Shown: positions 12,062 through 53,286, counted from the stretch's first letter. The stretch: DNA of 64,000 bases from Bacteriovoracaceae bacterium (GCA_048270185.1 JBLWTJ010000001.1:992001-1056000); one strand, 5' to 3'. Notes: generated by a model from the sequence alone, not told the origin. A program made the numbers and translations.

Positions 12062-12237
12062 TTTTATCTCCATTTTGTGTGAATGTGTGTTTGCGCAATA
12101 AAAATGCATAATTTCGCGAACTCTGTCTAGTTAAGAAATATTGAACTCATAATTTCAAGCACTTAGACTGGTGGTAATTCTTATAGGAGATCATTTCATC
12201 AAGGCCATTTTCTTGAAATTTGTGGTACTTATCCCCT

Positions 12238-15874: not shown

Positions 15875-16007
15875 GTGGGTCCTCTTTCTTTAAGTGTGTT
15901 TGCTAAAGTATGCCAAACAATAGTCCCACTTTCTTTTATTTAGAAAAATCTACAGATGGTGTTATAATTTAGACATCTGCTAACTATATGAATTTACGAG
16001 GTTTATC

Positions 16008-16319
16008 ATGAAGAAATTAGTATTTTTCGTCCCTAAAGAAGATGCTGAAGCCGTGAAAGATGCTATCTTTGAAGCGGGAGCAGGAACAATTGGTAATTAT
16101 GACTGCTGTTGCTTTGAAACAGAAGGCGTTGGCCAGTTTAGGCCACTAGATGGTTCTAATCCCCATATTGGTTATCAAGATGAAGTTGAAAGAGTTGTGG
16201 AGCTTAAGATTGAAACAATCTGTCCTGATCATAAAGTAAAAGAAGTGATTGCGGTCTTAAAGCAAGCTCATCCATACGAGGAACCTGCCATTGACCTTTA
16301 TGAGTTAGTTAACTTTTAG
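16008..16319 (+). CDS. Stand-alone PII-like domain of the NIF3/YqfO family
   Basis: KLVFFVP, AGAGTIGNYD.C.F, GQFRP, HPYEEPA. Confidence 0.9.
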   Translation: MKKLVFFVPKEDAEAVKDAIFEAGAGTIGNYDCCCFETEGVGQFRPLDGSNPHIGYQDEVERVVELKIETICPDHKVKEVIAVLKQAHPYEEPAIDLYELVNF

Positions 16320-16328
16320 ACTTTTTAA

Positions 16329-17279
16329 TTAGCGCTCAACACATGTGTGTCTAACGATTTCACTTAGACCATCACCTGATTCAACTTCAGTTGTATAAAT
16401 CAGCTCGTCTTCAGTCTTTCCATAAGTGATGGCCTCTTGCTGATAGAGATCCTTAGTTCTAAAAATTTTCATGTCTTTCTTCTCATTGATTTTTCTAAGA
16501 TCAAATTTATCAATCCCATCAAAATCAATTTTTAACTCCATCACGGCCGAATAAGTTAAGATAAGTAGCTTCTTTCCATCTTTGCTAATATCCATTGCAG
16601 TTGGGATTCTTCCCCATAGATTGAAATTATAAAGTTGGTATGGAAGATCAATTGTTGCGACTTCCACTAAGTTTACCTGGTGCTCGCCTTTTGCCATGGC
16701 ATCAGCAATTTTCTTCTTATCAACTTTAAAAAGTTTTGCTGGCATTGCACGACGATTCTCTTCATCGACTGTTTTTGTTAAAAGGTAGATATCACCATTT
16801 GGGTGAACAACTAAGCTTTCAGAATTATACTTACGATCAGGATAATTCATTTTTAACTTAAAAAGTGGATTCACTTCTTTTGTATCTTCCGTAATATCAG
16901 CTTCTTTAATTGCAATAACTGATAAGTACTTTCTCTTTTCTTTATTATCACCAATATCTGCGATGAAGAGACAACTATCATTTCCACATGGGCCTAGGGC
17001 CAGGTCTTCCATGTCATAAGGTTTGTAATTATTAACTTTATACTTCTGAAGAGATTTTCCCGTCATTGTTGTCGTATAGAAGAATGGCCCAGAACCAGAG
17101 TCATTAATATTATACATGCGGTCGCTAAATTTTTGAGAAAGAGCAATTCCTGAAGATTCATTTAAGACACTTGTATCAAGAGTTCCAATCACCTGTGGTT
17201 CTGACCACTTTTGACAAAGGGCAAATGAAGAGCAAGATGTAAAAAGAGTAAGTGATAGAACTGATAGTAGACGAAGCAT
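16329..17279 (-). CDS. Exported beta-propeller protein, probable lipoprotein
   Basis: ESSGIA, NDSG, DMEDLA, ADIGDN, QQEAI blade motifs; FTSC lipobox-like sequence. Confidence 0.7.
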   Translation of the reverse strand: MLRLLSVLSLTLFTSCSSFALCQKWSEPQVIGTLDTSVLNESSGIALSQKFSDRMYNINDSGSGPFFYTTTMTGKSLQKYKVNNYKPYDMEDLALGPCGNDSCLFIADIGDNKEKRKYLSVIAIKEADITEDTKEVNPLFKLKMNYPDRKYNSESLVVHPNGDIYLLTKTVDEENRRAMPAKLFKVDKKKIADAMAKGEHQVNLVEVATIDLPYQLYNFNLWGRIPTAMDISKDGKKLLILTYSAVMELKIDFDGIDKFDLRKINEKKDMKIFRTKDLYQQEAITYGKTEDELIYTTEVESGDGLSEIVRHTCVER

Positions 17280-17355
17280 GAATCCCCCAAAATGTTGCTG
17301 GACTATTAAATCACTGGTCGTTTAGTATGACAATATAAACGCCTTGGAGAATGTC

Positions 17356-18135
17356 ATGCTCGACTTTAGCAAGAAACCTATAATTCCAGTAATTTACCTA
17401 CGCCCACTACTTGGCTACCCGAGTCATCCAGGGATCAATCAGGTCATTGACATGGCCCTTGAAGATCTTGAAGTTCTAAGAAAGTGTGGTGTTGACGGTG
17501 CCTTACTCGAAAATGAGCACGACAGGCCTTATACAATTAAGGCCTCCAAAGAAGTCATTGCGTCCATGAGTGTAGTGGCCCACGCTATCCAAAGACACGC
17601 AGGTACTTTTCCAATCGGTAGTGAGTTCTTAATTAATGACCCTGAGGCTTCCCTTGCCATTGCTAAGGCCGGCGGAAATTCATTTATACGTACCGACTAT
17701 TTTGTCGATCGCATGGCCCGCGAAGAATATGGCGGAGAAATGGAAATTGATCCTCAAGGCTTACTCGACTATCGTGCGAAAATTGGTGCAGAAGATATTC
17801 AGCTTCTCACAGATATTCAGGTTAAGTATGCAACCATGTTAGAAGATAAAACGCTTGCTCAGTCAGCGGCCGATGCTTATCGATTTAATAGTGCCGCGGC
17901 CGTGGTCTCTTCACATGAAACAGGAACTGCTCCAAGTGCAAAAGAAATTCTAAGCGCACGAGAAGGGGCACCTAAACTTCCTATTATCATTGGCTCAGGA
18001 CTATCTCTTGAAAACCTTGATGAACTCTATCCTCTCATCGATGGTGCCATTGTTGGTAGTGCATTGATGACGCAGACAAGAATGGACTACGAAAAGGTTG
18101 CACCATTTATGGATAAGGTCTTTAGGCTTAGATAA
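17356..18135 (+). CDS. BtpA/SgcQ family TIM-barrel protein
   Basis: GVDGALLENEHDRPY, DIQVKYA, IIGSG, DGAIVGS. ATG at 17356 after GGAG. Confidence 0.88.
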   Translation: MLDFSKKPIIPVIYLRPLLGYPSHPGINQVIDMALEDLEVLRKCGVDGALLENEHDRPYTIKASKEVIASMSVVAHAIQRHAGTFPIGSEFLINDPEASLAIAKAGGNSFIRTDYFVDRMAREEYGGEMEIDPQGLLDYRAKIGAEDIQLLTDIQVKYATMLEDKTLAQSAADAYRFNSAAAVVSSHETGTAPSAKEILSAREGAPKLPIIIGSGLSLENLDELYPLIDGAIVGSALMTQTRMDYEKVAPFMDKVFRLR

Positions 18136-18137
18136 AT

Positions 18138-18947
18138 ATGTACTTTATTGGCGACGCAGGAATTGATGAGTATCTAAATTTAGAAAAGAATTATCTAGGT
18201 GGATGCTCTTTAAATGTAGCGGGCCACTATCGCCTATGTTCAAAGCTTGAAACTCATCTAATCTTTCCAACGATTACCAATAATCCTATTGAAAGTTATT
18301 GCGAGGAAATAGGAATCACCCACTACCCTCTATATCGAAATGGAGAGCTTCCTCGCCAAGAAATTGATATACAAGAAAGTGGCGAGAAAATCTTTGTACA
18401 ATATCACCCAGGAGTTATTGAAGGTTTTGTATTAGGTCATGAAGAAAAATTACTTTTAAAAAAGTGTGACACCATTGTGGCCCCTCTCTTTACTCAAATC
18501 CTTCCCTTCATTGATCAAGTCATTGAAGTTAGCGACTCAAAATTTATCTTCGACTTTCACGATGCTAGTGACTTCAATAAAGATATCAATGAAATTTCAA
18601 AATACTTAAAGCATGCAAGTATGGCCCAATTTGGCTTAACTCTTAAAGATGAAAACTTAAAAGCACAGCTTGTGAATAAGTCTATTGAACTTGGAATCGA
18701 ACTTCTTATCACGCAAGGTAGTGATGAGATTTACTATCTTGATGCCAAATCAAATACTGAAGTCAGATATACTCCAACTAAAATTGAAAAAGTATTTGAT
18801 AGCACAGGAGCCGGTGATTCTTTCCTTGGGGCATTTCTTTACTATAAGCAAGTCACAACAATCCACGATGCACTTGCCAAAGCAAGTACTTACGCAGCGC
18901 AAACTTTACAGTATTTCGGCCCTCTCCCTCATTTGTCGCATATATAA
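18138..18947 (+). CDS. PfkB family carbohydrate kinase
   Basis: GGCSLNVA and DSTGAGDSFLG signatures. Confidence 0.88.
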   Translation: MYFIGDAGIDEYLNLEKNYLGGCSLNVAGHYRLCSKLETHLIFPTITNNPIESYCEEIGITHYPLYRNGELPRQEIDIQESGEKIFVQYHPGVIEGFVLGHEEKLLLKKCDTIVAPLFTQILPFIDQVIEVSDSKFIFDFHDASDFNKDINEISKYLKHASMAQFGLTLKDENLKAQLVNKSIELGIELLITQGSDEIYYLDAKSNTEVRYTPTKIEKVFDSTGAGDSFLGAFLYYKQVTTIHDALAKASTYAAQTLQYFGPLPHLSHI

Positions 18948-19064
18948 CCAAAGCGTTAACAAACGTGCGCAACGCGTATTTAATTAACATAGTTAATATC
19001 CATATAATTTCTGTTTACATTTATTTACCCGAGAATACCCAGATCTCAAAGTTACGGAGAACTT

Positions 19065-20546
19065 ATGAATACAATTGAATTCCCAAATGAAACGATCCAC
19101 TGCCAAAACCTAATTGGTGGAAATTGGAAAACAGGAAGTGGTGCCAAGATCGATATCCACTCTCCTTATAATGGGAAGGTTGTCGGCGAAACACATAATG
19201 CGACATCACAAGAAATCGAAGAGGCCATCAACCTTGCTCATGAAGCATCAAAGAAATGGGGCCAAACACCTTTAAAAGAAAGAACTCAAGTTCTTTTTAA
19301 CTTCAGAAATATTCTTCTAAGAGATATCGATAAGATGTCTAATAGGGTTGCCCTTGAAAGTGGGAAAACTCTTGCCGAAGCAAAGGCCGGAATCCTTAAA
19401 GGAATTGAAGTCTTAGAATTTGCTGTTTCTATCCAAAACCTCGACCAAGGTGGAAAGATGGAAGTATCACGTGGTGTTTTTTGTGAGTACAGAAGAGAGC
19501 CACTTGGAGTTGTTGCTTCAATCACTCCTTTTAACTTCCCGGCAATGGTTCCAATGTGGACAATCCCAATCGCAATCGCTCTAGGAAATAGCTACGTTTG
19601 GAAGCCTAGTGAGAAAACTCCACTCACAGCGACTCTACTTGCCAATGCTCTAAAAGAAGCAGGTCTTCCAGATGGTGTAATGACAGTACTAAATGGTGAT
19701 TCAACAGTTGTTAATGCCATTATTGATAATGAAAAAGTTAAGGCAGTTGGATTTGTTGGTTCAAGTAAAGTTGCAAAACTAGTTTACCAAAGAGCAAGCC
19801 AGCACGGAAAACGTGCACTATGCCTTGGTGGAGCAAAGAACCACATCGTTCTACTACCAGACGCAACGCCTGAGATGGCAGGTGTAGGAATTGCTGATTC
19901 ATTTACTGGTTGTGCCGGTCAAAGATGTATGGCCGCTTCTGTTTTACTAGCTGTTGGTGAGACAACAAAGCAAATTGAAGCAATTAAAGAACGCGCCCTT
20001 GCCACAACTTGTGGAGATAAGATGGGTGCACTTATTACAAAAGAACAATATGACTTCTTAAATGGTGCAATTGATGATGCTGTTAAGAATGGTGCTACTT
20101 TACTTCTCGATGGCCGTGGTCAAAAAGCTAGTGATGCCAAATACGAAGGTGGCTACTGGCTAGGGCCAACGATACTCGACAATGTAAAACCTGATTCACA
20201 GGCTTCAAAGATTGAATTATTTGGGCCAGTACTAAGCATTATCCGCGCACAAAATATTTCAGAAGCAATGGAAATTGAAAACTCAAATGACTATGGAAAT
20301 GCTTGTTCTGTTTTTACAAATAACGGAGCAATGGCAGAGATCGTTGCAACAAAAGCAAAGGCCGGAATGGTTGGAATTAATATAGGAGTACCAGTTCCAA
20401 GAGAACCATTTAGTTTTGGTGGAATCAATGAATCAAAATTTGGATTCGGAGATATCACTGGAGCAAACTCTCTAAACTTCTGGAGTGATATTAAGAAAGT
20501 TACGACTAAGTGGACAATGCAAAACGATCACAACTGGATGAGCTAA
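19065..20546 (+). CDS. mmsA: CoA-acylating (methyl)malonate-semialdehyde dehydrogenase
   Basis: PFNFPAMVP, KPSE, GGAKNH, CAGQRCMA, GINIGVPVP. Confidence 0.92.
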   Translation: MNTIEFPNETIHCQNLIGGNWKTGSGAKIDIHSPYNGKVVGETHNATSQEIEEAINLAHEASKKWGQTPLKERTQVLFNFRNILLRDIDKMSNRVALESGKTLAEAKAGILKGIEVLEFAVSIQNLDQGGKMEVSRGVFCEYRREPLGVVASITPFNFPAMVPMWTIPIAIALGNSYVWKPSEKTPLTATLLANALKEAGLPDGVMTVLNGDSTVVNAIIDNEKVKAVGFVGSSKVAKLVYQRASQHGKRALCLGGAKNHIVLLPDATPEMAGVGIADSFTGCAGQRCMAASVLLAVGETTKQIEAIKERALATTCGDKMGALITKEQYDFLNGAIDDAVKNGATLLLDGRGQKASDAKYEGGYWLGPTILDNVKPDSQASKIELFGPVLSIIRAQNISEAMEIENSNDYGNACSVFTNNGAMAEIVATKAKAGMVGINIGVPVPREPFSFGGINESKFGFGDITGANSLNFWSDIKKVTTKWTMQNDHNWMS

Positions 20547-20550
20547 GAAA

Positions 20551-21834
20551 ATGAAGGAAACTAAGATGGATGCAAAAACATTGAAATTTGAAAGGTCGAG
20601 CCACGTCGTTCTGACTTCACATAGAAACCAAGTTTTTAAGAAATCTCTACCGATTCACTGGGGAGCAAAGAACCCAAAAGAGCGTGGACCAGTTATTGGA
20701 ACAATTACTGAACTTGAAAATAGAAATGCCATAGGAACACATAGCGGCTCTTACACTGTTTATCGTGCCCTATCGATTGCTCAAGGGAATTACCCTAAGG
20801 AGCACAGACCGGATCTAAACAATACTCAGGCAACAACTGAAATTGGACCTTTTGATTCATGGTTTGATCCTGATAAATTAGTTTCGATTGACCCATGGGG
20901 TGGACACGTTCAACAAGTTTTTAAAGACGAGTTAGGCGATGGATATAATATCAATCCAACAATTGCTGTGACACAGGCCCATCTTCAAATCCCAGAAATT
21001 TATGATGCCGTTGCCAAAGGACGTCTAAAGCCAGATGGAAAGATCGTTAAGAATAATGGAGATATTGCCATTACAAAAATTGCTTTTGAACCTGTGTGGT
21101 ATCTACCGGGTATTGCTAAGCGCCTTGGTATTGATGAAGGTGAATTAAGAAAGATTCTCTTTAATGAAACAGGGGGAATGTTTCCAGAACTAGTTACGCG
21201 CCCAGATTTAAAGGTTCTTCTTCCACCAATCGGCTCTTCAACGGCCTATGTATTTGGTGATCCAAAAGATCTGGCCAATCCTGATGTAAAATTATCTTGT
21301 CGTGTTCACGATGAGTGTAATGGTTCAGACGTTTTTGGTTCTGATATTTGTACATGCCGTCCATACCTAACTTATGGGATTGAGCACGCGGCAAAGACAG
21401 CGCAAGAAGGTGGAGTTGGTATTGTCGTCTACTTTAGAAAGGAAGGACGAGCTCTTGGTGAAGTAACAAAGTTCCTTGTTTATAACGCAAGAAAGAGACA
21501 AGAAGGTGGAGATTCAGCTGCGAATTACTTTAAGCGCACGGAATGTGTTGCTGGAGTTGAGGATGCGAGATTCCAGGAGTTAATGCCAGATGTACTACAC
21601 TACTTTGGTATCAAAAGAATTCACGAACTTCATTCAATGTCGAATATGAAATACAACGCAATTACAGGAAGTGGGATTGAAGTTATTAATCGTATCTCAA
21701 TTCCAGATGAGCTAATTCCAGCCGATGCTCAAGTTGAAATTGAAGCAAAGAAAGCTGCCGGTTACTTCACTGCAGGCGAAGTGAAGTCAAAGAATGACCT
21801 CGAAAAAGTACAAGGAAGAAAACTAGATGAGTAA
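20551..21834 (+). CDS. URC1-type GTP cyclohydrolase II-like protein
   Basis: N-terminal WGA...RGPVI..RNAIGTHSGSY extension plus RVHDECNGSDVFGSDICTCRPYL and KEGRALGE. Confidence 0.92.
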   Translation: MKETKMDAKTLKFERSSHVVLTSHRNQVFKKSLPIHWGAKNPKERGPVIGTITELENRNAIGTHSGSYTVYRALSIAQGNYPKEHRPDLNNTQATTEIGPFDSWFDPDKLVSIDPWGGHVQQVFKDELGDGYNINPTIAVTQAHLQIPEIYDAVAKGRLKPDGKIVKNNGDIAITKIAFEPVWYLPGIAKRLGIDEGELRKILFNETGGMFPELVTRPDLKVLLPPIGSSTAYVFGDPKDLANPDVKLSCRVHDECNGSDVFGSDICTCRPYLTYGIEHAAKTAQEGGVGIVVYFRKEGRALGEVTKFLVYNARKRQEGGDSAANYFKRTECVAGVEDARFQELMPDVLHYFGIKRIHELHSMSNMKYNAITGSGIEVINRISIPDELIPADAQVEIEAKKAAGYFTAGEVKSKNDLEKVQGRKLDE

Positions 21835-23035
21835 TACGTCCAATAATATTGATTATATCAGAAGTCCAAAGGCCATCAGAGAAAAAACGATGATGCTTTA
21901 TAACCTTTCAAAAGAAGGGAAGACGAACTTCGAAATTCATGAAGAGAAACTTGATGAAGTTGCAAACTTTGTTTTAGAAACAATTAAGAATAACTACCCT
22001 AGTCTTGAAATCCCTTTTCACTCACGTTGGGGACACTTTAGAGTTGGTGGAATAAAAAGAGACGATGAAGTAGCAAAGAAGCTAGCAAATGCAGACGCTC
22101 TAGAGATTGCAAGAACAAAGCTTGATCTTGCCATCACTTCTGTCTTACTAGATGCAGGAGCAGGCCCAACCTGGAAGTACAATGAAGCGGGACAATTCTT
22201 TAATCGCTCAGAGGGACTAGGAGTTGCAAGCTTTCATATGTTTATGGCAGGTGCATTTTCAAATGATGGAAGCCTTGCTGCCCACGCAACAAAGCTTACA
22301 ACAATTACTGCAAGTGATATTGAAAAATACTTTCAAGTAACGCCAGAGAATCCTCTTATTGGAACTGAAGGTCGTGCCCTACTTCTTAAGTCTCTTGGAG
22401 AAACAATTGCCAAGAAACCGGAAGTTTTCAAAGATGGACGCCCAGGTAATATCGTCGATCACTTAATTGCCAAGCACGGTAAAAGCTTTAAGGCACAAGA
22501 TCTACTAAAAGCAGTTCTTGAGCATTTTGGGGATATTTGGCCATCACGAATTGAAATGGATGGAGTCAATCTTGGAGACGTTTGGTCTCACCCAGCATTA
22601 GGAGAGAAGAATTCATTTGACTCTCTTGTAGCATTTCACAAGCTATCTCAGTGGTTAACTTACTCACTAATTGAACCAATTATTGAAGCCGGAATAAATG
22701 TAACAGACGTAAGTGAAATGACAGGTCTTGCAGAATATCGCAATGGTGGCCTTTTAATTGATAAGGGATTGATCTCTCTTAGAGATAAATCACTTTATGA
22801 TATTGCTCATAGGCCGGATAGCGAGGTCATCATTGAATGGCGCGCTCTTACTGTAGTCTTTCTCGATAAATTAGCAGATATCGTTCGTGGACAACTAGGC
22901 TTTAGTGCAGAGGAATTCCCTCTAGCAAAAGTCCTTGAAGGTGGAACATGGTGGGCCGGAAGAATCGCGGCCAAGGAGAAACGTGAAGATAGCTCTCCTC
23001 CATTAAAGCTTGATAGTGATGGAACAGTTTTTTAA
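21827..23035 (+). CDS. URC4/Urg3 (DUF1688) protein
   Basis: IPFHSRWGHF, SVLLDAGAG..W, RSEGL, FHKLSQWLTYSL, TGLAEYRNGGL, SDGTVF. Confidence 0.93.
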   Translation: MSNTSNNIDYIRSPKAIREKTMMLYNLSKEGKTNFEIHEEKLDEVANFVLETIKNNYPSLEIPFHSRWGHFRVGGIKRDDEVAKKLANADALEIARTKLDLAITSVLLDAGAGPTWKYNEAGQFFNRSEGLGVASFHMFMAGAFSNDGSLAAHATKLTTITASDIEKYFQVTPENPLIGTEGRALLLKSLGETIAKKPEVFKDGRPGNIVDHLIAKHGKSFKAQDLLKAVLEHFGDIWPSRIEMDGVNLGDVWSHPALGEKNSFDSLVAFHKLSQWLTYSLIEPIIEAGINVTDVSEMTGLAEYRNGGLLIDKGLISLRDKSLYDIAHRPDSEVIIEWRALTVVFLDKLADIVRGQLGFSAEEFPLAKVLEGGTWWAGRIAAKEKREDSSPPLKLDSDGTVF

Positions 23036-23050
23036 AAATTTGGAGAATAT

Positions 23051-23680
23051 ATGACAACACTTAACTTAATCAATCACCCGATTATCCAACATAAGCTAAC
23101 AAAGCTACGTGAAAAAGATACAAACTCAATTGGCTTTAGAGGCCTTATGAATGAGATCGGTAAATTTCTAGCCTACGAAGCCACTCGCAATATCACAACT
23201 GAAACTTATGATATCGAAACACCACTGATGAAGACACGTGGTATTCGTCCAACAACTTATCCAATGGTTGTCTCAATCATGAGAGCAGGAAATGGAATGC
23301 TTGACGGTGTTCTTGAAACCCTACCATATGCAAGTGCCGGACATATTGGAATTTATCGCGATAAGTTTATCCACAACACAGTTGAGTACTATTTCAAACT
23401 GCCAGAAGATGCCAAGGGACGTGATGTTCTCCTTCTTGATCCTATGCTTGCAACTGGAGATACAATGATTGCATCCATTGATCGCCTAAAGCAGTATGAA
23501 GTCGGAAAAATTACAGTTTTATCAGTTCTAGTTAGCCCTGAAGGAATTGAGAAGGTACACCACTTTCATCCTGATGTTGAAATCTTTGCTCTAAGCAAAG
23601 AGGAAGGCCTTAATGAGAAAGGCTACCTTCTTCCAGGTATGGGTGATGCCGGGGACCGACTATATAATACAACGCTTTAA
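23051..23680 (+). CDS. upp: Uracil phosphoribosyltransferase
   Basis: IMRAG, LDPMLATG, YLLPGMGDAGDR. Confidence 0.96.
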   Translation: MTTLNLINHPIIQHKLTKLREKDTNSIGFRGLMNEIGKFLAYEATRNITTETYDIETPLMKTRGIRPTTYPMVVSIMRAGNGMLDGVLETLPYASAGHIGIYRDKFIHNTVEYYFKLPEDAKGRDVLLLDPMLATGDTMIASIDRLKQYEVGKITVLSVLVSPEGIEKVHHFHPDVEIFALSKEEGLNEKGYLLPGMGDAGDRLYNTTL

Positions 23681-23707
23681 TATTTTAAATGAGATTGAGG
23701 GAGAGAG

Positions 23708-24319
23708 ATGAGCGAAGTCTATATCATAGGAATTGCAGGTGGAAGTGGGTCTGGAAAGACTACTTTTGCGACAAGGTTACGTGCACGCCTAGGAGAAGAA
23801 CATTCTGAAGTTCTTGGCCAAGACTCATACTATATCGATCAATCAAATAAATTTGACCATGATGGAGGGGCCGTCAACTTTGACCACCCTTCATCATTAG
23901 AATTCTCACTCATGGCCTCTCACCTACTTGAGCTTAAAAATGGCAAAAGTATCGACGTACCTATTTACGACTTTGCTACACATAAGAGATTACCAAAGGC
24001 CGACAAATTAGCTCCGAAAAGAATTATTTTTGTTGATGGAATCCTTATCTTCTCTCAACCAGAGGTCGTTAATTGTCTCGATCATAAAATCTTTATCGAT
24101 TGTGAAGAAGAACTTCGCTACACGAGACGACTTGATCGTGATGTCAAAGAACGTGGACGTACTCCAGAAGGTGTTAGAGCTCAATTTCAGGCCCAAGTTA
24201 AGCCAATGCATGATGAATTTGTTGAGCCATCAAAATCCGTTGCTTGCGATATTGTCTGTGTTCATAATTTTGATGAAAAGCTTGATTTGTGGACCGAAAA
24301 GATAAAGAACCTCATTTAG
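23708..24319 (+). CDS. udk: Uridine kinase
   Basis: GIAGGSGSGKTT, NFDHP, RRLDRDVKERGR, FVEPSK. Confidence 0.95.
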   Translation: MSEVYIIGIAGGSGSGKTTFATRLRARLGEEHSEVLGQDSYYIDQSNKFDHDGGAVNFDHPSSLEFSLMASHLLELKNGKSIDVPIYDFATHKRLPKADKLAPKRIIFVDGILIFSQPEVVNCLDHKIFIDCEEELRYTRRLDRDVKERGRTPEGVRAQFQAQVKPMHDEFVEPSKSVACDIVCVHNFDEKLDLWTEKIKNLI

Positions 24320-24329
24320 CATCCGATAA
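24303..24329 (+). promoter_or_regulatory. sigma28 (FliA)-like promoter
   Basis: TAAA-N15-TCCGATAA versus consensus TAAA-N15-GCCGATAA. Confidence 0.65.
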
Positions 24330-24355
24330 GTTTTATAGAATTTCTCGGGGGATCT

Positions 24356-25450
24356 ATGAAACGTATCACGCTACTTGCGATTATTTTTTTTCTATTTAGC
24401 TGCCAATCAGAACAAGCTTCAAAACGCAGTGTTGCTTCAGTTAATGCACTTCAGCCACCTGTTGAACAAGGTGAAATCTGGGGAGAGAAAGAAGCACAGA
24501 ATATGGAGCGAGTTGCTGATATCTTTCGCGAAACACTTATTGAGTCAACAGGTAATGACAAGATCATGAAGCGTGATGCCCACCCAAAGCACCACGGTTG
24601 TGTCACTTCTGATCTAACAATCGATAATTCGAAGTTACCTGAAAGTCTAAGAGTTGGACTCTTTAGCGAAAATAGATCTTATAAGAGTATCATTCGTTTC
24701 TCCAATGGAGATCCTGACTTTAGGAAGAATGATATTGAAAGTGATGTTCGTGGTATGGCCCTTAAAATTATTAATCCAACCTATCAGAATTATCTCCAAG
24801 AAATTGGTTTTGATGGAAATGAAAATATCCACGATTTAGTCATGATGAATGCAGATAGCTTCTTTATTGCCAATCCTAAGGCTTATGAAAAATTTATGGA
24901 ATCAACTCGAGGACGTTTTGGAGTCCTTGGCTACCTGGCCCTACACTGGGGAACTCTAAAAAAGATTCTTGGAGCACGCGTAAAGGTCTCAAACCCTCTT
25001 GATATAGACTACGCTTCAGCAACACCATATAAGCTAGCTAATACAAGTATGAAATTTGGTTTTAAGTCTTGTCGTAAGAATAAAGATACAATCCCTGAAT
25101 CTCCAAGTGCGAACTACCTGGGAGAAAGGTTAATGAGTACACTTGCAAGAGAAGAAGGATGTTTTGAATTCTATGTCCAGCCAAATATGGATCCAAAGAA
25201 GAATCAAATTGAGAATGCTATGAAGTCATGGGATGAGAAGAAGTCACCTAAAATCACAGTCGGAAAGCTTATTGTTAACAAGCAAACCGGATTTCGTTCA
25301 CCAGCGAGAATGGAAGCATGTGAGAATATGACATTTAATCCATGGCGAGCACCAAAAGAGAATCGACCTCTAGGTGGAGTTAATCGTATAAGATTAGAGG
25401 TCTACCTCAATCAATCAAAATTAAGACACGATTATAACGGTGTTAGATAA
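24356..25450 (+). CDS. Catalase-related heme lipoprotein (mini-catalase/peroxidase)
   Basis: Lipobox LFSC, RDAHPKHHG distal His, RFSN, DVRGMALK, DLVMMN, NRIR..VY proximal Tyr. Confidence 0.85.
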   Translation: MKRITLLAIIFFLFSCQSEQASKRSVASVNALQPPVEQGEIWGEKEAQNMERVADIFRETLIESTGNDKIMKRDAHPKHHGCVTSDLTIDNSKLPESLRVGLFSENRSYKSIIRFSNGDPDFRKNDIESDVRGMALKIINPTYQNYLQEIGFDGNENIHDLVMMNADSFFIANPKAYEKFMESTRGRFGVLGYLALHWGTLKKILGARVKVSNPLDIDYASATPYKLANTSMKFGFKSCRKNKDTIPESPSANYLGERLMSTLAREEGCFEFYVQPNMDPKKNQIENAMKSWDEKKSPKITVGKLIVNKQTGFRSPARMEACENMTFNPWRAPKENRPLGGVNRIRLEVYLNQSKLRHDYNGVR

Positions 25451-25454
25451 GAAG

Positions 25455-25478
25455 AAGGCCCTGAAAACAGGGCCTTTT
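25455..25478. terminator. Intrinsic terminator between convergent genes
   Basis: aaggccctg-aaaa-cagggcctttt. Confidence 0.85.
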
Positions 25479-25488
25479 ATTTGAGAAA

Positions 25489-26856
25489 TTATTGTGCAAG
25501 AATTGCTGAAAGGTGGGCAGCATATGACCATGTTAGATCTGTTGCACCTTCCATATAACCGCTATGACGGTTCATTTGTTCTGACATATGCCCGTTTGTA
25601 CCGGCATGGTAATTTGCACGATTAAAGAATTCCTGTGCCTTAATTCTTAGGTTTTTAATGATTGCAACTTTAGTCGCCTCATTTGTTAAACCTTCAAGAC
25701 TACATTCTTTCTTCTTAAGCTCAAGTAGGTCACAGTAGAACTCAGTATTTGTGATATTGAAATCTTGCGCAAGAGCATGTGAAAGTTTCAGGTGAAATTC
25801 GGCCATTGCAAATGTTGCTAAGAACCATGCATGTCCTTCACTATCAGTCGTGTAACCATCGTAAGTATCTTCTGGATAGCGTCCAATAGCTGTTCCAAGT
25901 TGCTCACCTTCAATTGTGTTAATTCCATATAGATTTTTGAAAGTATTTTCAATTTTAGAAACAGTTCTTAGGACTCTGTCACTTTTAACATCATAGTAAC
26001 CATTATTATCTCCAGCGTGTAGAACACCCAGAACAACTGAAATATCAAGTTGAGACTTCCATACACCACGAGTTTGATAGATTGTTGATTGAATATAACC
26101 TTTGTCTTCAGACCAGAAGTTTTCAACAACAGCTTCAATCTTCTTTGCCTCTTCTTCATAGTATTGAGCTGCTCCACCATCTCCTAGACGTCTTGCAAGG
26201 TTTGCTCCTTGTAGAAGGGCCTGTCTTTGAGCAAGGATCGTTGAGAAGTGAAGTCCCATGACTTCTTCCCAGTAATCAAAACCTTGTTCATTCCAATGAC
26301 GAGCAGTGTATTCAAGATCTTGCTTAATAACAGAAAGTGCAGGAAGAGTTGGCGTGTAAAGAGTATTCACAACGTAATCCATCTTTCCTTCTTCAATAAG
26401 TGTATTAGCAAAATTGATTAGAGTTAGTGCTCTAAGCGCTGGACCGTCGTGTTGAGGACGACCCCAAGGCCCAGTGAAGACTGTTCCGTCAACATTGTAC
26501 TTTGGCTCACCAAGATTCCAAAAACCAGAAGCATTCTGGTTTGTTTGTACCCTTTCAACAAAGCGATAAAGTACACCATAAAGCTCTGCTTTCTTTTCCT
26601 GTGTTTCTTGTTTAGCAACATTTAGAACTGTATTCATTACAAGTGCTGCATCTCTTACCCAGTGGTAGAAATAATCAGGATTTGCTCGAGATGGTGAAGC
26701 AACAACTGTTCCCTTTACAGTATCAGCTGGTTCAATATTCTCTAAAAGGTATTGTAAACTATTTCCATAGTTGATCTTGTCTAAGATCTTTGTCGTACTT
26801 GCAAATGATGTACTTGCAAAAAGTGTAATCAGTAAAAAGCTCTTTAAGAATTTCAT
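25489..26856 (-). CDS. Secreted glucoamylase (GH15)
   Basis: Signal peptide; PDYFYHWVRDAAL, LGEPK, WGRPQHDGPALRA, DYWEE, GRYPED, SEQ, LTWSYA. Confidence 0.93.
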   Translation of the reverse strand: MKFLKSFLLITLFASTSFASTTKILDKINYGNSLQYLLENIEPADTVKGTVVASPSRANPDYFYHWVRDAALVMNTVLNVAKQETQEKKAELYGVLYRFVERVQTNQNASGFWNLGEPKYNVDGTVFTGPWGRPQHDGPALRALTLINFANTLIEEGKMDYVVNTLYTPTLPALSVIKQDLEYTARHWNEQGFDYWEEVMGLHFSTILAQRQALLQGANLARRLGDGGAAQYYEEEAKKIEAVVENFWSEDKGYIQSTIYQTRGVWKSQLDISVVLGVLHAGDNNGYYDVKSDRVLRTVSKIENTFKNLYGINTIEGEQLGTAIGRYPEDTYDGYTTDSEGHAWFLATFAMAEFHLKLSHALAQDFNITNTEFYCDLLELKKKECSLEGLTNEATKVAIIKNLRIKAQEFFNRANYHAGTNGHMSEQMNRHSGYMEGATDLTWSYAAHLSAILAQ

Positions 26857-28553
26857 TATATCTCCTTGAGGTATTCTTTAATTTCTTTGGCACTTCCAAG
26901 TGATAAAACACACGAAGTAATTTCATCACACTTACTCTTATTTAATTCATTGATAATTTTCTTTGTCTTTAAAACATGCATTGGACTCATACTTAATTTA
27001 TCCACACCACTCCCAATAAAGAAACTTAGAAGTTCTGGGATATGGGCCATTGATCCACAAATTGAAACACCTATCCCATTTTCCTTGGCATTTTTTGCAA
27101 CCAGATTTATTAATCTAAGAACACCTGGGTTAAAAGGATCGTATAGTTTTTCAACTTTAGGATTAATACGATCAACAGCGCATGAGTACTGAATTAGGTC
27201 ATTAGTTCCAAGAGAGAAGAAATCAACATGCTTTGCTAGAACATCTGAAATGATTGCAGCAGAAGGAACTTCGATCATCATACCAATTTTGATATTTGAC
27301 GATACTTCAACTCCTTCACTTACTAATTCATTCTTACACTCTTCAACAAAACTTTTTGCTTCCACTAGCTCTTCTAATGAAGAAATCATTGGAAACATAA
27401 TCCCCATCTTTCCATAAGTACTTGCTCTTAAAAGGGCACGAATTTGAGTCCTAAACAACTCGCGATCTTGTAGACAAATACGAATGGCACGATAGCCTAA
27501 GAATGGATTATCTTCCGCATCGATCTTTAAGTACGGAAGACTCTTATCTCCACCGATATCTAAAGTTCTGATGATACATTCTTTGTCACCTAAGCGGCTG
27601 AGGATTCTCTTATACTCTTTAAACTGTTCATCTTCTGTTGGCATCGTATCTCGATCCATATACAGAAATTCAGTCCGATAAAGTCCTACAGAATCGGCAT
27701 CATTGCGCTCAAAAGAGTCAAGATCGTGATATGTTCCAATATTTCCAGCAAGACTAATCTCGTGACCGTCTGTTGTTTTTGCAGGCAGCCCCTTAAGTTT
27801 TTCTAACTCGGCGAGTGCGTTTCTTTGCTCACCTAATTGAGTCTCAAATCGCACAATATCGTCTTGAGTAGGGTTAACGATAACTTCACCTGTCTCACCA
27901 TCAAATGCAATCATATCACCGTCAATACAATTTTCAGTAATATTCTTAAGTCCGACAACGGCCGGGATCTCAAGAGTTCTTGCCATGATGGCCGAGTGAG
28001 AAGTCTTCCCACCAATATTTGTTAAAAATCCTAGAACATAGTTCTTATTCATCATTGCTGTTTCTGATGGAGTTAAATCATTAGCAACAAGAATCACCTC
28101 TTCATCTAAGAGAGAGAGATCAATAGTTTTCTTACCTACTAAATGATTTTCAACACGTCTGAAAACATCTTTTAAGTCAGCGGCGCGCTCACGCATATAC
28201 TCATCACCCATTGATTCAAAAAGAGTCACAAACTCAGTTACAACTTGGCTTAGGCACCACGCTGCATTTAATTGATCGCGCTCGATTTGATTCGTCGTCT
28301 TCTTATAGACTTCTGGGTCGTCTAGGATCATCAGGTGAGCATCGAAGATAGCGGCCTTACCTTCCCCTAGATTTTCAAGACTAGCATCACGAATTTTTGA
28401 GATCTCCTGGCGAGATATTGCCATAGCAGCATCAAGCTTTTTAATCTCAGCGGTAACGTCAGTAATACTTGCACGTGAGATTTCTATTTTAGAATCATCT
28501 ATCTTTAGCACACGGCCAATAGCGATTCCAGGAGAGGCTTTAATTCCTTTCAT
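26856..28553 (-). CDS. ptsI: PTS enzyme I
   Basis: GGKTSHSAI phospho-His, GLYRTEFL, NPFLGYRAIR, GTNDL. Confidence 0.97.
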   Translation of the reverse strand: MKGIKASPGIAIGRVLKIDDSKIEISRASITDVTAEIKKLDAAMAISRQEISKIRDASLENLGEGKAAIFDAHLMILDDPEVYKKTTNQIERDQLNAAWCLSQVVTEFVTLFESMGDEYMRERAADLKDVFRRVENHLVGKKTIDLSLLDEEVILVANDLTPSETAMMNKNYVLGFLTNIGGKTSHSAIMARTLEIPAVVGLKNITENCIDGDMIAFDGETGEVIVNPTQDDIVRFETQLGEQRNALAELEKLKGLPAKTTDGHEISLAGNIGTYHDLDSFERNDADSVGLYRTEFLYMDRDTMPTEDEQFKEYKRILSRLGDKECIIRTLDIGGDKSLPYLKIDAEDNPFLGYRAIRICLQDRELFRTQIRALLRASTYGKMGIMFPMISSLEELVEAKSFVEECKNELVSEGVEVSSNIKIGMMIEVPSAAIISDVLAKHVDFFSLGTNDLIQYSCAVDRINPKVEKLYDPFNPGVLRLINLVAKNAKENGIGVSICGSMAHIPELLSFFIGSGVDKLSMSPMHVLKTKKIINELNKSKCDEITSCVLSLGSAKEIKEYLKEI

Positions 28554-28561
28554 ACAAGGAC

Positions 28562-28822
28562 CTAAAGTTCGAATTTATTATTTACTAATGTACTAAGACG
28601 ATCAATTGCATTTTGCTCATCAGAACCATTAGCTGTAATCGTTATCACAGAATCTTTAGTTAGACCTAGCCCCATAAGACTCATGATTGATTTAGCATTA
28701 ACTTCATTACCATTTGCAATGATATTAATATCTGATTCAAATTCATTTGCTGTTTTCACAAAGCTTGCAGCAGGTCTTGCGTGTAGGCCTTCTTCATTTT
28801 TGATCGTAACTTCAATTTGCAT
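28562..28822 (-). CDS. ptsH: PTS phosphocarrier HPr
   Basis: GLHARPA and NAKSIM. Confidence 0.97.
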   Translation of the reverse strand: MQIEVTIKNEEGLHARPAASFVKTANEFESDINIIANGNEVNAKSIMSLMGLGLTKDSVITITANGSDEQNAIDRLSTLVNNKFEL

Positions 28823-28831
28823 ATAAACTCC

Positions 28832-30763
28832 CTATTGTTTAAAATTTAAATTTAAAATTTCATCAGTATTTGAAACAGCTCCTGACTTTAAGAAAGTCAG
28901 ATCACTAATTTTATCCATATTTGTTATCACAACAGGTGTGATTGTACTCTTTGCTCTTTCTTTCACAAGATCGAGATCGAACTCGATAAGAATGTCGCCT
29001 TTTTTGACGCTATCACCGGCCGCAACCTTGCCTGTGAAACCTTCTCCTTTCATCTTCACAGTATCAATTCCTACGTGAACAAGAACTTCAGCACCGCTTT
29101 CAGCAATAATCCCTACTGCGTGATTTGTGTGGAAAATTTGAGCAACCTTTCCATCAACAGGTGAATAGACAACACCTTCTGTTGGATCAATAGCAAAGCC
29201 ATCACCAACTAACTTTCCTGAAAAAGTCGGATCAGGAACATCGGCAATTGAAATAAATTGTCCTTTAAGTGGCGAGTAAATTCCATTTGTATGAACTTTC
29301 TCAATTACAGGAGCGGCCTTAGCAAGAGAGAGGATTTCTTCTTTTAATTGTTCTGACTCCGTTCCATAAATAATTTGCACATTATTTCCTGATTTCATAA
29401 TTCCGCGAGAACCTGTCTTCTTTAAAGCTTCTTCACTGACCATATCAGGATTTACAGCAACTAATCTTAGACGAGTAATACAAGCGTCTAGGTTTTTAAT
29501 ATTACTTGCTCCACCAATCGCGGCAAGGATTTCAATGGCCTTATCTGTTGCTGAGATATTCGCATCAACTTCCACAAGGTCTTCATCTTCACGTCCAGGT
29601 GTTTTAAAATCGAAAATTGGAATTAGTGTATAGAAAACACCGAAGTATAGAACCGCAATAATTGGTCCAACGACAAGCCATAAGTAGAAACTATTTTGCT
29701 GATTGAAGTAACCAACAACAAAATCAATTAAAGATGCCGAGAATGTATATCCTAAGTGAATATCAAAATGATTTGTCAGAAGCCCCGAAATAAATGCACC
29801 ACAAACGTGGAATCCATAAAGAAGTGGAGCAACAAAGATAAAGGCAAACTCAAGAGGCTCTGTAATCCCAGTTAAGATTGAAGTCAGGGCCGCTGTAAAC
29901 ATGATCCCACCAATCGCAGTTCGCTTTGCCTTTGGCGCTCTAAGAGTCATAGCAAGGGCCGCGGCCGGAAGTCCGAAGAGCATAATTGGGAACTCACTGG
30001 CCATAATTTTACCAGCAGTTGGATCTCCCGCGAAGTAACGAACAGACTCTCCGTGAATTGTCTTACCTGCTTCTGTAACGAATGAACCAAATTCATAAAG
30101 AAACGGTGGATAGTAAACGTGGTGTAGACCAACCGGAATAAGAAGTCTCTTTCCTGCAGCATAGAAAGCTGGGCCATACTCTGAGGCCATCACTCTCACA
30201 CCAAAATCATGAATAACTTGTTGGATTGGTGGCCATATATAACCAAGAACAATTCCAGCAATAACTGCAGTTGCTGCTGTTAATATTGGCACTAGCCTCT
30301 TTCCGGCAAAGAATCCTAAGAATCTTGGAAGTGTTGTTTGATAGAATTTATTATAGAGATAGGCCGACAGAAGACCAATGATAATCCCGCCAAATACCCC
30401 TGTGTTGATAGCAAGTTCAAGATTTTGAACTTCACCAATCACTTTTAAAACATTGATAAGAGTGAAATATCCAACGGCCGATGCAAGACCTGCAACACCT
30501 GCTCCACCAGTGAAGCCAATGGCAACACCAATTGCAAAAACAAGTGGAAGTTGTTCGAAGATAGCTAGTCCACCACTATAAAATAATTTTCCAATACTCA
30601 TTAGAGCAACACTTGTCACAACACCTTCTGTTGTGGCCGAATCTTGAAGAACACGTCCTAAGGCAACAAGTAGACCTGCCGCTGGCAATACTGAAACTGG
30701 AACCATTAGTGATTTTGCAAGTCTTTGCAAAACAGTGAAGACTGAGTTTGTTATTTCTTTCAA
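28832..30763 (-). CDS. ptsG: PTS glucose-family EIICBA
   Basis: EIIC (GLHH, TGITEPLEF), EIIB DACITRLR, EIIA GDGFA and HVGIDTV. TTG start after GAGGG. Confidence 0.92.
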   Translation of the reverse strand: MKEITNSVFTVLQRLAKSLMVPVSVLPAAGLLVALGRVLQDSATTEGVVTSVALMSIGKLFYSGGLAIFEQLPLVFAIGVAIGFTGGAGVAGLASAVGYFTLINVLKVIGEVQNLELAINTGVFGGIIIGLLSAYLYNKFYQTTLPRFLGFFAGKRLVPILTAATAVIAGIVLGYIWPPIQQVIHDFGVRVMASEYGPAFYAAGKRLLIPVGLHHVYYPPFLYEFGSFVTEAGKTIHGESVRYFAGDPTAGKIMASEFPIMLFGLPAAALAMTLRAPKAKRTAIGGIMFTAALTSILTGITEPLEFAFIFVAPLLYGFHVCGAFISGLLTNHFDIHLGYTFSASLIDFVVGYFNQQNSFYLWLVVGPIIAVLYFGVFYTLIPIFDFKTPGREDEDLVEVDANISATDKAIEILAAIGGASNIKNLDACITRLRLVAVNPDMVSEEALKKTGSRGIMKSGNNVQIIYGTESEQLKEEILSLAKAAPVIEKVHTNGIYSPLKGQFISIADVPDPTFSGKLVGDGFAIDPTEGVVYSPVDGKVAQIFHTNHAVGIIAESGAEVLVHVGIDTVKMKGEGFTGKVAAGDSVKKGDILIEFDLDLVKERAKSTITPVVITNMDKISDLTFLKSGAVSNTDEILNLNFKQ

Positions 30764-43492: not shown

Positions 43493-43502
43493 ATGAATAC
43501 TT

Positions 43503-45824: not shown

Positions 45825-47683
45825 TACCCGACGTCCCCAAGTTGTACGACAAAGTCAGACTTAATATTTATGCTATTATTTGTCTCATTTATAAGATCTG
45901 ACATATCGTTAATACAACTAAGGTCATTCTCCATTGCCTTAACAATGATGGAATAGATACGTTTAAGGATTGCCTTACGAGAAAATTCATCATTAATAGT
46001 ATGTCCACAGTCTCCATTAGGTAGTGTTACAATATCTTTATGAGACGTTTGTAATTCTTCCCCAGTCAGATAAAGTTCTTCGAATAGCTTCTCACCTTTC
46101 TTCATACCGGTGAAAACGATATTTATACTCTCAATGCTTTTTCCCATAGCAAGAGCAAGTCTTTCTACAATATCGAGAATATAAATCGGATCTCCCATCT
46201 TTAAGACACAAAGGGATGTATTTTCAGAAACTGTTAAGCTATTCAACACAAGGCCAACCGCTTCAGGTATTGTCATAAAATAACGCTTCATTCTCTTATC
46301 AGTGATCGTCACTTTTTCATTATTCAAAATTTGTTCCATTACAATTGGAATCAGTGATCCACTAGAACCTAAAACATTACCAAATCTAACGGCGCGGTAT
46401 TCGCAGGTGCTATCTTTTGAGTAACAAGCGAGTAGGATTTCACACAGACGCTTAGTTGCCCCCATCACAGATGTAGGATTAACAGCTTTATCTGTAGAAA
46501 TTAAAATGAAACTCTTAACAGGAAACTCTGTTGAGAGATCGAGTAAATTCTTAGTACCTAAAACATTATTAAGAATTGCCGCCTTAGGGTTCGCTTCAAC
46601 AAGAGCAACATGTTTGTAAGCAGCTGCATGAAAAATATACTCTGGACAAGATTCTTTGAAAGAAGCATCTAGGGCTTCTTTATTTGTAATATCAATCATT
46701 AGAGAAGTAATTCTTACGTTACCAAAGTTGAATGATTTTATCTCATTTGTGATTTTGAATAGATTGTACTCACAGTTATCAATTAGAATAATCTCTTGGG
46801 GTTGCATTAAGAATAGCTGTCTCACTAGTTCAGCACCAATGCTACCTCCTGCTCCAGTTATACATACTTTTGAGCCATAAATTTTCTCAGAAAGAATAGT
46901 TAAGTCTGCTTCAATAGGCTCTCGCCCAAGTAATGTGTTTAACTCTATTTTATTAACCTTAAAATTTTGCCCAGAGAAAAGGTTTGCTTCAGAGATTGTG
47001 ACAGAAAGCTTATTACATACCTCTTTTATTTCTTTAGATTTATTAAAGTAATTACAATCAATAACAATTACTTCCTTAATTCTATTCTCAACAATTACTT
47101 TTTCCAATTCATCAATTCGACCCAAAACCTTAAACTGACCTTTAACAAGACTTACGTCATAGTCATCAACAAAGCCTACAATCGTGTGTGACTCACAATT
47201 AACATGACTTGCTAAGGATACTGCCTTCTTATCACTTCCTAGGATGATCGTTCTTGGACAATGTTGAGCATAAGATCGATCAAATAGTATCTTTCTCGTA
47301 ACTCGTGAAAAGATCATAATAACAAGAGAAACAGAGAAAATATTGAATAGTAACTGTTGATCGAGATTGAAAAATAAATATAAAGAGACACAAGTTGCAG
47401 TTAGAGCTAAGATCGATTTTAAAATACTTAGAGGTGTTGTATGCCTCCAAGAGTCAAGATTGCTTTTAGTTAGTAAACTAAAAAGTACAAAAAGTGATGA
47501 AAACTCAAGGTAGTAATATAGGAAAGATTCATTTCTTAAAAAGCCTAAGATAACTAAGTATGAATTAATTATTAATAAATCGAAAATAGGCCTAAATAAA
47601 AAATTAATAACCACTGAGAAAATCAACTCATACCCCACTAAAATTGTTAAATAAATTTTAGCCATTAGAGATGAAGTTCTCAA
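45824..47683 (-). CDS. Membrane-bound UDP-GlcNAc 4,6-dehydratase (PglF/CapD/WbpM family)
   Basis: N-terminal TMs, TGAGGSIG, HAAAYKHV, STDKA, MGATKR, RFGNVLGSSGS, GEKLFEEL. Confidence 0.93.
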   Translation of the reverse strand: MRTSSLMAKIYLTILVGYELIFSVVINFLFRPIFDLLIINSYLVILGFLRNESFLYYYLEFSSLFVLFSLLTKSNLDSWRHTTPLSILKSILALTATCVSLYLFFNLDQQLLFNIFSVSLVIMIFSRVTRKILFDRSYAQHCPRTIILGSDKKAVSLASHVNCESHTIVGFVDDYDVSLVKGQFKVLGRIDELEKVIVENRIKEVIVIDCNYFNKSKEIKEVCNKLSVTISEANLFSGQNFKVNKIELNTLLGREPIEADLTILSEKIYGSKVCITGAGGSIGAELVRQLFLMQPQEIILIDNCEYNLFKITNEIKSFNFGNVRITSLMIDITNKEALDASFKESCPEYIFHAAAYKHVALVEANPKAAILNNVLGTKNLLDLSTEFPVKSFILISTDKAVNPTSVMGATKRLCEILLACYSKDSTCEYRAVRFGNVLGSSGSLIPIVMEQILNNEKVTITDKRMKRYFMTIPEAVGLVLNSLTVSENTSLCVLKMGDPIYILDIVERLALAMGKSIESINIVFTGMKKGEKLFEELYLTGEELQTSHKDIVTLPNGDCGHTINDEFSRKAILKRIYSIIVKAMENDLSCINDMSDLINETNNSINIKSDFVVQLGDVG

Positions 47684-47739
47684 TCGGGTAAATAAATCCT
47701 TAATGTATTAACTAACCTGATAAGCTATTATTAATAGGA

Positions 47740-53258: not shown

Positions 53259-53286
53259 GAAAATATCTTAATCAAACAAATAAAGC

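Follow-up and report, generated by a model that had tools for sequence, protein, structure and literature searches.

The 64,000-nt stretch of a Bacteriovoracaceae bacterium genome that was analysed here (GCA_048270185.1, JBLWTJ010000001.1:992001-1056000; hereafter the window) carries five adjacent genes, coding for an aldehyde dehydrogenase (ALDH) of the (methyl)malonate-semialdehyde dehydrogenase (MSDH) type, URC1, URC4, the uracil phosphoribosyltransferase (UPRT) Upp and the uridine kinase Udk (Table 1). The source genome has a size of 3.35 Mb and is 95.9% complete; the window corresponds to C1:992001-1056000. On the strength of gene families, conserved gene order and structural models, we consider it likely that the five genes form an operon for a version of the URC route that is specific to Bdellovibrionota. 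It would break down uridine and uracil to acetyl-CoA, ribose phosphate and urea, the latter being discarded, and would thus serve the supply of carbon and energy.

In the proposed scheme, Upp would join uracil and phosphoribosyl pyrophosphate to yield UMP, whereas Udk would use ATP to convert uridine (and cytidine) into UMP (CMP); the assignment of this entry step to Udk and Upp comes from strong equivalog-level matches. UMP would be raised to UTP by PyrH and Ndk, which are encoded outside the operon (the genome has pyrH and two ndk genes at other places) and whose role in the route we infer. URC1 would then open the uracil ring of UTP by means of zinc-activated water, with the release of pyrophosphate, 5-phosphoribosylurea and malonate semialdehyde. 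Judging from its fold and from yeast genetics, URC4 would split 5-phosphoribosylurea into urea and ribose 5-phosphate, and the ALDH would turn malonate semialdehyde, CoA and NAD+ into acetyl-CoA, CO2 and NADH. The net yield would be acetyl-CoA, NADH and ribose 5-phosphate rather than nitrogen, and urea would be excreted.

Conservation and distribution of the five-gene cluster

An earlier note on this stretch had interpreted the five genes as a URC-type pyrimidine catabolic operon, and both the gene families and the conserved gene order bear this out. Related loci were collected by scanning genome contigs with a URC4 alignment; the best 80 of 590 confirmed stretches were used, almost all of which belong to Bdellovibrionota, and their neighbouring genes were annotated by blastp of the window proteins against six-frame open reading frames (ORFs). 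This survey of operon conservation, which had been proposed in the note, revealed that 62 of the 70 loci in which every neighbour is assessable have the five genes in the same order, among them the chromosomes of Bdellovibrio bacteriovorus (L046, L050). URC1 is present in 77 of the 80 loci and absent from none (3 unassessable), and Upp is present in 79 and likewise absent from none (1 unassessable). The ALDH was found in 69 loci (absent from L018, L031, L049 and L056; 7 unassessable) and Udk in 68 (absent from 7; 5 unassessable). In every one of the 79 assessable loci upp adjoins URC4, and Udk comes after upp in 68 of 75, in agreement with the earlier view that Upp and Udk are parts of the operon.

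The surroundings of the cluster show no such order. The most widespread flanking family occurs in 15 of 79 loci, the flanking functions are unrelated to one another, and no conserved transporter or regulator beside the cluster was found among the flanks of the related loci. Six Pseudobdellovibrio-type loci (L041, L069 and four similar ones) continue after udk with genes for a cytidine/dCMP-type deaminase and a xanthine-dehydrogenase small subunit, which suggests a larger nucleobase-catabolic island at these six places. Three further loci (L026, L124, L125) have an ORF of ~1000-1400 aa after udk, the ALDH domain of which is 27-29% identical to the window ALDH; this long ORF is possibly PutA-like.

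Within the genus, DNA similarity to congeners (70-79%) spans only the region from ~19050 to ~24300 of the window. The block was found in 7 other genomes, in some only as fragments, among the 13 searched in the genus (the source genome included), and a DNA similarity search saw no block in five congeners, each of which is 99% complete. The flanking parts of the window have their matches on other contigs or in genomes without the block. Since the similarity is confined to the block and the flanks are located elsewhere, it is reasonable to propose that the five genes represent a discrete module that is gained or lost together. A chance adjacency of the five genes is ruled out by their order in related loci, the unconserved flanks and the modular behaviour in the genus.

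The phyletic coupling of URC4 and the ALDH was assessed in one sample of 301 Bdellovibrionota genomes, which were searched for URC4 and for an ALDH ortholog (at least 52% identity). URC4 occurs in 117 and the ALDH ortholog in 110 of these genomes; both are present in 104, URC4 only in 13, the ALDH only in 6, and neither in 178. As kin are not independent, this co-occurrence is given without a statistic. Among 12 loci from URC4-only genomes, 10 have the arrangement URC1-URC4-upp-udk, and none has an MSDH-type ALDH beside these genes (2-3 of them are too near the contig end for a judgement). In Pseudomonadota, URC4 was detected in 27 of 401 sampled genomes. URC1, URC4 and upp occur together in 24 of 26 loci from that phylum, and neither an ALDH nor udk is located within ~7 kb in any of the 26; the flanks are varied, with nucleoside-metabolism neighbours now and then. 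From the comparison of the two groups it appears that URC1-URC4-upp is the common bacterial core, that the Bdellovibrionota have added udk to it, and that most of them have also added the ALDH.

Bacteriovorax and Halobacteriovorax supply the closest URC4 homologs (that of Bacteriovorax sp. Seq25_V at 81%). By the names of homologs and related loci, the organism falls in an obligately predatory lineage, so that the predator setting assumed earlier holds. Judged by sequence, the five genes most likely constitute one operon, a variant of the known URC route in a Halobacteriovorax-like bacterium.

Predicted reactions of URC1, URC4 and the aldehyde dehydrogenase

Protein families were identified with Pfam and NCBIfam profiles on the window proteins. 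URC1 is composed of a PF12471 domain (GTP_CH_N, 277 bits) and a PF00925 domain (58 bits). In the PDB it matches 7EEV and 7EJ3, which were deposited as 'Structure of UTP cyclohydrolase' and 'UTP cyclohydrolase', with an E value of 4.2e-178 over residues 16-426. Foldseek with an AlphaFold2 (AF2) model of URC1 (predicted local distance difference test score, pLDDT, 81.9) retrieved the same two entries with 63% identity and template modelling (TM) scores of 0.87-0.93 (TMq 0.87), followed by E. coli RibA at E 1e-7. Five residues (Cys256, Cys267, Cys269, Tyr311 and Arg340) do not vary among 41 URC1 sequences, and the cysteines align with those of Mycobacterium tuberculosis RibA2. From work on E. coli RibA, we take the cysteine triad to be zinc ligands and the Tyr and Arg residues to be catalytic. 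A bacterial UTP cyclohydrolase, UrcA, is reportedly the subject of a paper by Zhang et al. in ACS Catal of 2021, to go by its title in a reference list. URC1 stays below the cut-offs of the RibA equivalogs (TIGR00505, 49.8 bits vs 205.85; NF001591, 57.6 bits vs 148).

On the basis of these comparisons, the window URC1 is a probable UTP cyclohydrolase that would open the uracil ring hydrolytically. Because of the 63% identity to a solved UTP cyclohydrolase, ring opening most likely takes place at UTP, after the action of PyrH and Ndk, and not at UMP, from which the earlier note had degradation start. The same note had called the chemistry of URC1 and URC4 poorly resolved. This is outdated for URC1, and for URC4 the Qng1-like fold described below provides a concrete reaction. 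In addition, the database name 'GTP cyclohydrolase II', which is widespread for URC1-type proteins, is corrected here.

A comparison of URC4 with the PDB by sequence gave nothing meaningful, neither with the single protein (best E 0.11) nor with a 125-sequence profile (0.43). An AF2 model of URC4 was built on 125 diverse family members (pLDDT 96.7). The top ten Foldseek hits for this model are all the queuine salvage enzyme DUF2419/Qng1 (E 1.9e-9). When aligned with VIA-align, URC4 and Qng1 match with Z scores of 26.6-27.3 and root-mean-square deviations of 2.9-3.1 Å over 308-325 residues (best Z 27.3, 3.0 Å, 312/319), compared with Z ~10 for helix-hairpin-helix (HhH) DNA glycosylases. PF10343 has no match in the window URC4 at E 0.001 or better; some URC4 homologs carry a precomputed match to it.

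The C-terminus gives a further link to Qng1. In 123 of the 125 URC4-family proteins the terminal residue is a Phe at the same aligned position, none extends further, and the typical tail reads SDGTVF. According to a report on Qng1 (PMC9881137), in which the word URC4 is absent, this enzyme has queuosine 5'-monophosphate as substrate, Asp231 of its HhH motif initiates glycosidic cleavage, Lys199 orients the ribose, and the active site includes the free carboxylate of an invariant Tyr at the C-terminus. The C-terminal Phe of URC4 parallels this invariant Tyr. Qng1 reportedly loses its activity when a tag is attached to the C-terminus. Yeast URC4 leads from ribosylurea to urea (PMC7530994). Taken together with the Qng1-like fold, this makes 5-phosphoribosylurea + H2O -> urea + ribose 5-phosphate the most likely reaction; going by the model, URC4 is most likely a Qng1-like nucleotide N-glycosidase that splits 5-phosphoribosylurea. 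This assignment offers a lead on the reaction of DUF1688/URC4, an uncharacterised family with 2415 representative clusters, the homologs of which are named 'URC4/urg3 family protein' by NCBI.

The ALDH just passes the profile of CoA-acylating methylmalonate-semialdehyde dehydrogenases (MMSDHs), TIGR01722, with 449.0 bits vs a cut-off of 448.5. Its 10 PDB matches with E values of 1e-60 or below are all MSDHs, the best being 9izv (E 1.7e-108), and the names of the entries 9izv and 8xxq indicate that known MSDHs accept malonate and methylmalonate semialdehyde. In 63 orthologs that adjoin URC1, Cys288, Asn157 and Arg287, the residue before the cysteine, are invariant. The position of the general-base Glu is taken by Leu254 in 62 of them and by Met in one; four other ALDHs of the genome have Glu there. 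Human ALDH6A1 possesses Asn at this site, and 12 canonical MMSDH-type paralogs of the phylum have Leu (11) or Phe (1), together with Arg before the cysteine.

These canonical paralogs are 37-43% identical to the URC-linked ALDH, the clade of which holds together at an identity of at least 52%. Sixteen positions separate the two groups, among them Lys112 (63/63), where the canonical and human enzymes have Arg. In the B. subtilis MSDH, two Arg residues, reportedly Arg124 and Arg301, hold the substrate carboxylate; the corresponding positions of the URC-linked clade would be Lys112 and Arg287. In a quick tree of the ALDHs, URC-linked and orphan ALDHs are located on one side of a branch with a support of 77, which is suggestive only of a clade of their own. 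From the sequence comparisons as a whole, the ALDH forms its own clade and bears hallmarks of a CoA-acylating semialdehyde dehydrogenase, among them the catalytic cysteine and a general-base position without Glu.

The window ALDH is the only one of its type in the genome, and public names of its orthologs include 'malonic semialdehyde oxidative decarboxylase' (H. marinus SJ) and 'CoA-acylating methylmalonate-semialdehyde dehydrogenase'. A URC8-like short-chain dehydrogenase/reductase (SDR) was not found in the operon, which has the MSDH-type ALDH instead. An unrelated adh_short gene is located 8 kb off on the opposite strand. As foreseen in the earlier note, a probable CoA-acylating dehydrogenase thus stands in place of URC8: the gene that immediately precedes URC1 in most related loci codes for a non-hydrolytic ALDH of the MSDH type. 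Since it takes the place of a URC8-like reductase, acetyl-CoA is most likely the end product, as family membership, active-site residues and conserved synteny of the ALDH indicate. For enzymology, this points to a separate group of MSDHs that would serve an aldehyde derived from nucleotides.

Regarding the entry into the route, no full-length upp other than that of the window was found in the genome, and contig C4 carries another udk-like gene (40% identity). The window udk itself reaches 189 bits with TIGR00235, below the cut-off of 220. As to the fate of urea, neither of the two enzymes for which the earlier note had proposed a look-up, urease and urea amidolyase, was found: urease alpha (PF00449) has no match in the genome, and for urea carboxylase (TIGR02712) there are genome-wide only partial matches from biotin-carboxylase-like regions, all under the cut-off. 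Urea-degrading enzymes are therefore likely absent from this 95.9% complete genome. As none was found, urea is probably excreted, and with urea discarded the route looks built for carbon and energy, not for nitrogen. Considering also that the cluster comprises neither a transporter nor a UMP/UDP kinase nor a urea-degrading enzyme, the previous designation as a complete operon was too strong. Of other routes for uracil, RutA was not found in the genome, and the hydantoinase/dihydropyrimidinase model has no match over its cut-off there (209.6 bits vs 393).

Alternative readings and related pathways

Several observations weigh against a dedicated catabolic route to acetyl-CoA. The URC1 products 5-phosphoribosylurea and malonate semialdehyde are assumed by analogy with the yeast pathway and with GTP cyclohydrolase II (RibA). 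For Lys199 and Asp231 of Qng1, URC4 offers only candidate counterparts, namely K272 (122/125), D251 and D312 (125/125 each). The ALDH exceeds the TIGR01722 cut-off by only 0.5 bit and has Lys112 for the canonical Arg, so that its substrate could differ. A linked ALDH is missing in 13 of the 117 URC4-positive Bdellovibrionota genomes and in all 26 Pseudomonadota loci, and these loci imply that the ALDH is dispensable for the core route. Finally, with the sole full-length upp in its midst, the operon must serve salvage too.

This last point leads to the alternative that survives best, although we regard it as unlikely: the operon might mainly function in pyrimidine salvage and homeostasis, with URC1, URC4 and the ALDH acting as an overflow valve that trims excess UTP and no significant carbon or energy route. 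Not only the singular upp would fit such a role, but also the action of URC1 on UTP, a central pool metabolite, and the lack of a transporter or regulator conserved beside the cluster. However, an ALDH clade dedicated to feeding acetyl-CoA is retained in 104 of the 117 URC4-positive genomes, and catabolic neighbours, the deaminase and xanthine-dehydrogenase genes, follow in six loci. Salvage and catabolism are, moreover, not mutually exclusive.

It is quite improbable that the ALDH, instead of converting malonate semialdehyde to acetyl-CoA, acts on a different aldehyde, be it methylmalonate semialdehyde that stems from thymine or valine or some further intermediate of the URC route. The borderline TIGR01722 score, the distinctness of the clade (37-43% to canonical paralogs; 16 clade-specific positions including Lys112 for Arg) and six genomes with the ALDH ortholog but without URC4 would be in line with this possibility. 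Yet the catalytic cysteine, the preceding Arg and the missing general-base Glu are all shared with MSDHs, known representatives of which take malonate as well as methylmalonate semialdehyde by the above entry names, and the gene stands in synteny with the very step that is expected to release malonate semialdehyde.

Least probable of all, and very hard to reconcile with the data, is that URC1 is a GTP cyclohydrolase II, as its NCBIfam name says, and supplies riboflavin synthesis in a genome without canonical RibA. The match to NF005536 'GTP cyclohydrolase II' is high (738 bits), URC1 is the only PF00925 match in the genome, and a ribD-ribE-ribB-ribH operon (contig C4, L091 6508-9386) encodes a monofunctional RibB of 215 aa. 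However, none of 7 genomes examined in the genus showed a canonical RibA, and four congeners among them (~99% complete each) have ribH without any PF00925 match, from which it follows that the genus gets RibA activity in some other way, and many genomes of the class possess both ribBA (E 1e-55 to 1e-76) and a URC1-type gene. Furthermore, URC1 stays far below the TIGR00505 cut-off, its closest solved structure is titled UTP cyclohydrolase, and it always adjoins URC4 and upp.

As a catabolic route that ends in acetyl-CoA, the operon can be set beside the yeast URC pathway (Lachancea kluyveri URC1-6 and URC8; S. pombe urg1-3). URC1, URC4/DUF1688 and a UPRT (URC6 in yeast) are common to both, and a uridine kinase feeds both. 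In yeast, ribosylurea and urea are intermediates and 3-hydroxypropionate is the end product (PMC7530994). Whereas yeast splits urea with URC3,5 for nitrogen, neither urease nor urea carboxylase was found in the window genome. Likewise, the yeast route ends in 3-hydroxypropionate, formed by what we take to be the URC8 reductase step, while the window operon has an MSDH-type ALDH and no SDR.

With the bacterial three-gene URC operon (UrcA; 7EEV, 7EJ3) the window cluster shares the URC1-URC4-upp order, which is also that of 24 of 26 Pseudomonadota loci. The Pseudomonadota loci differ by the lack of ALDH and udk (0 of 26), whereas the Bdellovibrionota mostly add udk and, in 104 of 117 URC4-positive genomes, the ALDH. 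In the Rut pathway (E. coli rutA-G), which reportedly leads from uracil to a three-carbon product via malonic semialdehyde (Kim et al., 2010), it is the free base that is attacked by a flavin monooxygenase, and its RutA has no counterpart among the genes found in the window genome.

On the enzyme level, Qng1/DUF2419 (7U07, 7UK3, 7UGK) has its fold in common with the predicted URC4 model over nearly the whole chain. Both proteins possess a strictly conserved aromatic C-terminal residue, and both would cleave the N-ribosidic bond of a 5'-phosphorylated ribotide. Their identity amounts to 16-18%, however, URC4 is ~80 residues longer, and the leaving group would be urea and not queuine. The window ALDH finds its best PDB matches among MmsA/IolA/ALDH6A1 enzymes (TIGR01722; E 1e-91 to 1e-108), with conservation of Cys288, Arg287 and Asn157 and a non-acidic general-base position in both. 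It is set apart from canonical MMSDHs as a separate clade (at most 43% identity, Lys112 for Arg and 15 other positions) and is linked to URC genes, not to valine, inositol or beta-alanine genes.

The URC pathway itself is not new, its key bacterial enzyme has been solved, and NCBI already names URC4-family and MSDH-type proteins here. The window operon departs from the forms known in yeast and common in bacteria by its predicted end step, which is oxidative and CoA-acylating and falls to a dedicated ALDH clade. It also has udk linked to it, lacks the use of urea and is distributed as a module within a predatory phylum. A literature search, the coverage of which did not extend to the key UTP cyclohydrolase and yeast URC papers, retrieved no description of the five-gene Bdellovibrionota form.

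Classical work suggests that predatory bacteria obtain more RNA from their prey than they are able to use again. The proposed pathway would suit a predator flooded with prey RNA. The operon would constitute a concrete route from the pyrimidine ring and the ribose of this RNA to acetyl-CoA, NADH and ribose 5-phosphate. More tentatively, we deem it quite possible, if short of probable, that the URC route was rebuilt in predatory Bdellovibrionota from nitrogen scavenging to the gain of carbon and energy from surplus prey RNA. In such a scenario, a private MSDH clade (Lys112) and udk would have been added to URC1-URC4-upp and urea would be thrown away, entry at UTP would act as a direct drain on the nucleotide pool, and the block would come and go as one mobile unit, also among members of a single genus. 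In the Qng1 superfamily of nucleotide glycosidases, URC4 would in that case be the first protein outside queuosine metabolism to have a substrate assigned, namely 5-phosphoribosylurea.

Operon layout and other genes of the window

The five plus-strand genes span 19065-24319 with gaps of at most 27 bp. Coordinates and spacing agree exactly with the ORF list, as had been reported earlier. In the order ALDH-URC1-URC4-upp-udk, the genes are separated by 4 nt, an 8-nt overlap, 15 nt and 27 nt (Table 1).

Table 1. Operon genes and upstream leader, with window positions and supporting profile matches
Feature	Position	Strand	Product length	Basis
ALDH (MSDH-type, mmsA-like)	19065..20546	+	493 aa	PF00171 418 bits; TIGR01722 449 bits
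URC1/UrcA homolog, probable UTP cyclohydrolase	20551..21834	+	427 aa	PF12471 + PF00925; NF005536 738 bits
URC4/DUF1688	21827..23035	+	402 aa	PF07958 484 bits
upp, uracil phosphoribosyltransferase	23051..23680	+	209 aa	TIGR01091 236 bits; NF001097 245 bits
udk, uridine kinase	23708..24319	+	203 aa	NF004018 216.5 bits
Intergenic leader upstream of the operon	18948..19064	+		Read from sequence

The leader contains a perfect TATAAT (19003-19008) together with a weak -35 element, and a GGAG stands 7-10 nt before the ATG. A promoter consensus scan found no promoter in the operon leader, and nothing rose above shuffled expectation for promoters or terminators; the TATAAT and -35 elements hint at a promoter for the operon, albeit only weakly. 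The only strong hairpin of the terminator scan is located at 25455-25476, past the next, unconserved ORF. Rfam gave nothing at E 0.1 or better within 16000-27000.

Just upstream of the operon, at 17344-18947 (+), lies a BtpA/SgcQ-family gene (PF03437), followed after 2 nt by a gene for a short PfkB-family kinase (269 aa) with a weak fructoselysine-6-kinase-like match. On the other side, an ORF of 364 aa at 24356-25450 (+) begins 36 nt past udk and has a weak partial match to catalase (28 bits). Both the BtpA-PfkB pair and the catalase-like ORF were rejected as operon members, as neither has a homolog in the 80 related loci (E<1e-10) and both are located on other contigs in congeners.

Farther downstream, at 25489-30763 (-), a GH15 glucoamylase-like gene stands together with genes for enzyme I of the phosphotransferase system, for HPr and for a sugar transporter of fused EIICBA type. 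This lineage of obligate predators thus has a gene set for the uptake of sugar. At 12220-14412 (+), a protein of 730 aa combines an OsmC-like domain with a YcaO cyclodehydratase including the C-terminal domain of the latter, and a glutathione peroxidase gene adjoins. The region of ~43500-60000 is occupied by a polysaccharide/O-antigen-type cluster with a sugar transferase-aminotransferase fusion, a Wzy-like polymerase, glycosyltransferases, a UDP-sugar dehydrogenase and an epimerase; its G+C content of 0.31-0.34 is lower than that of the rest of the window.

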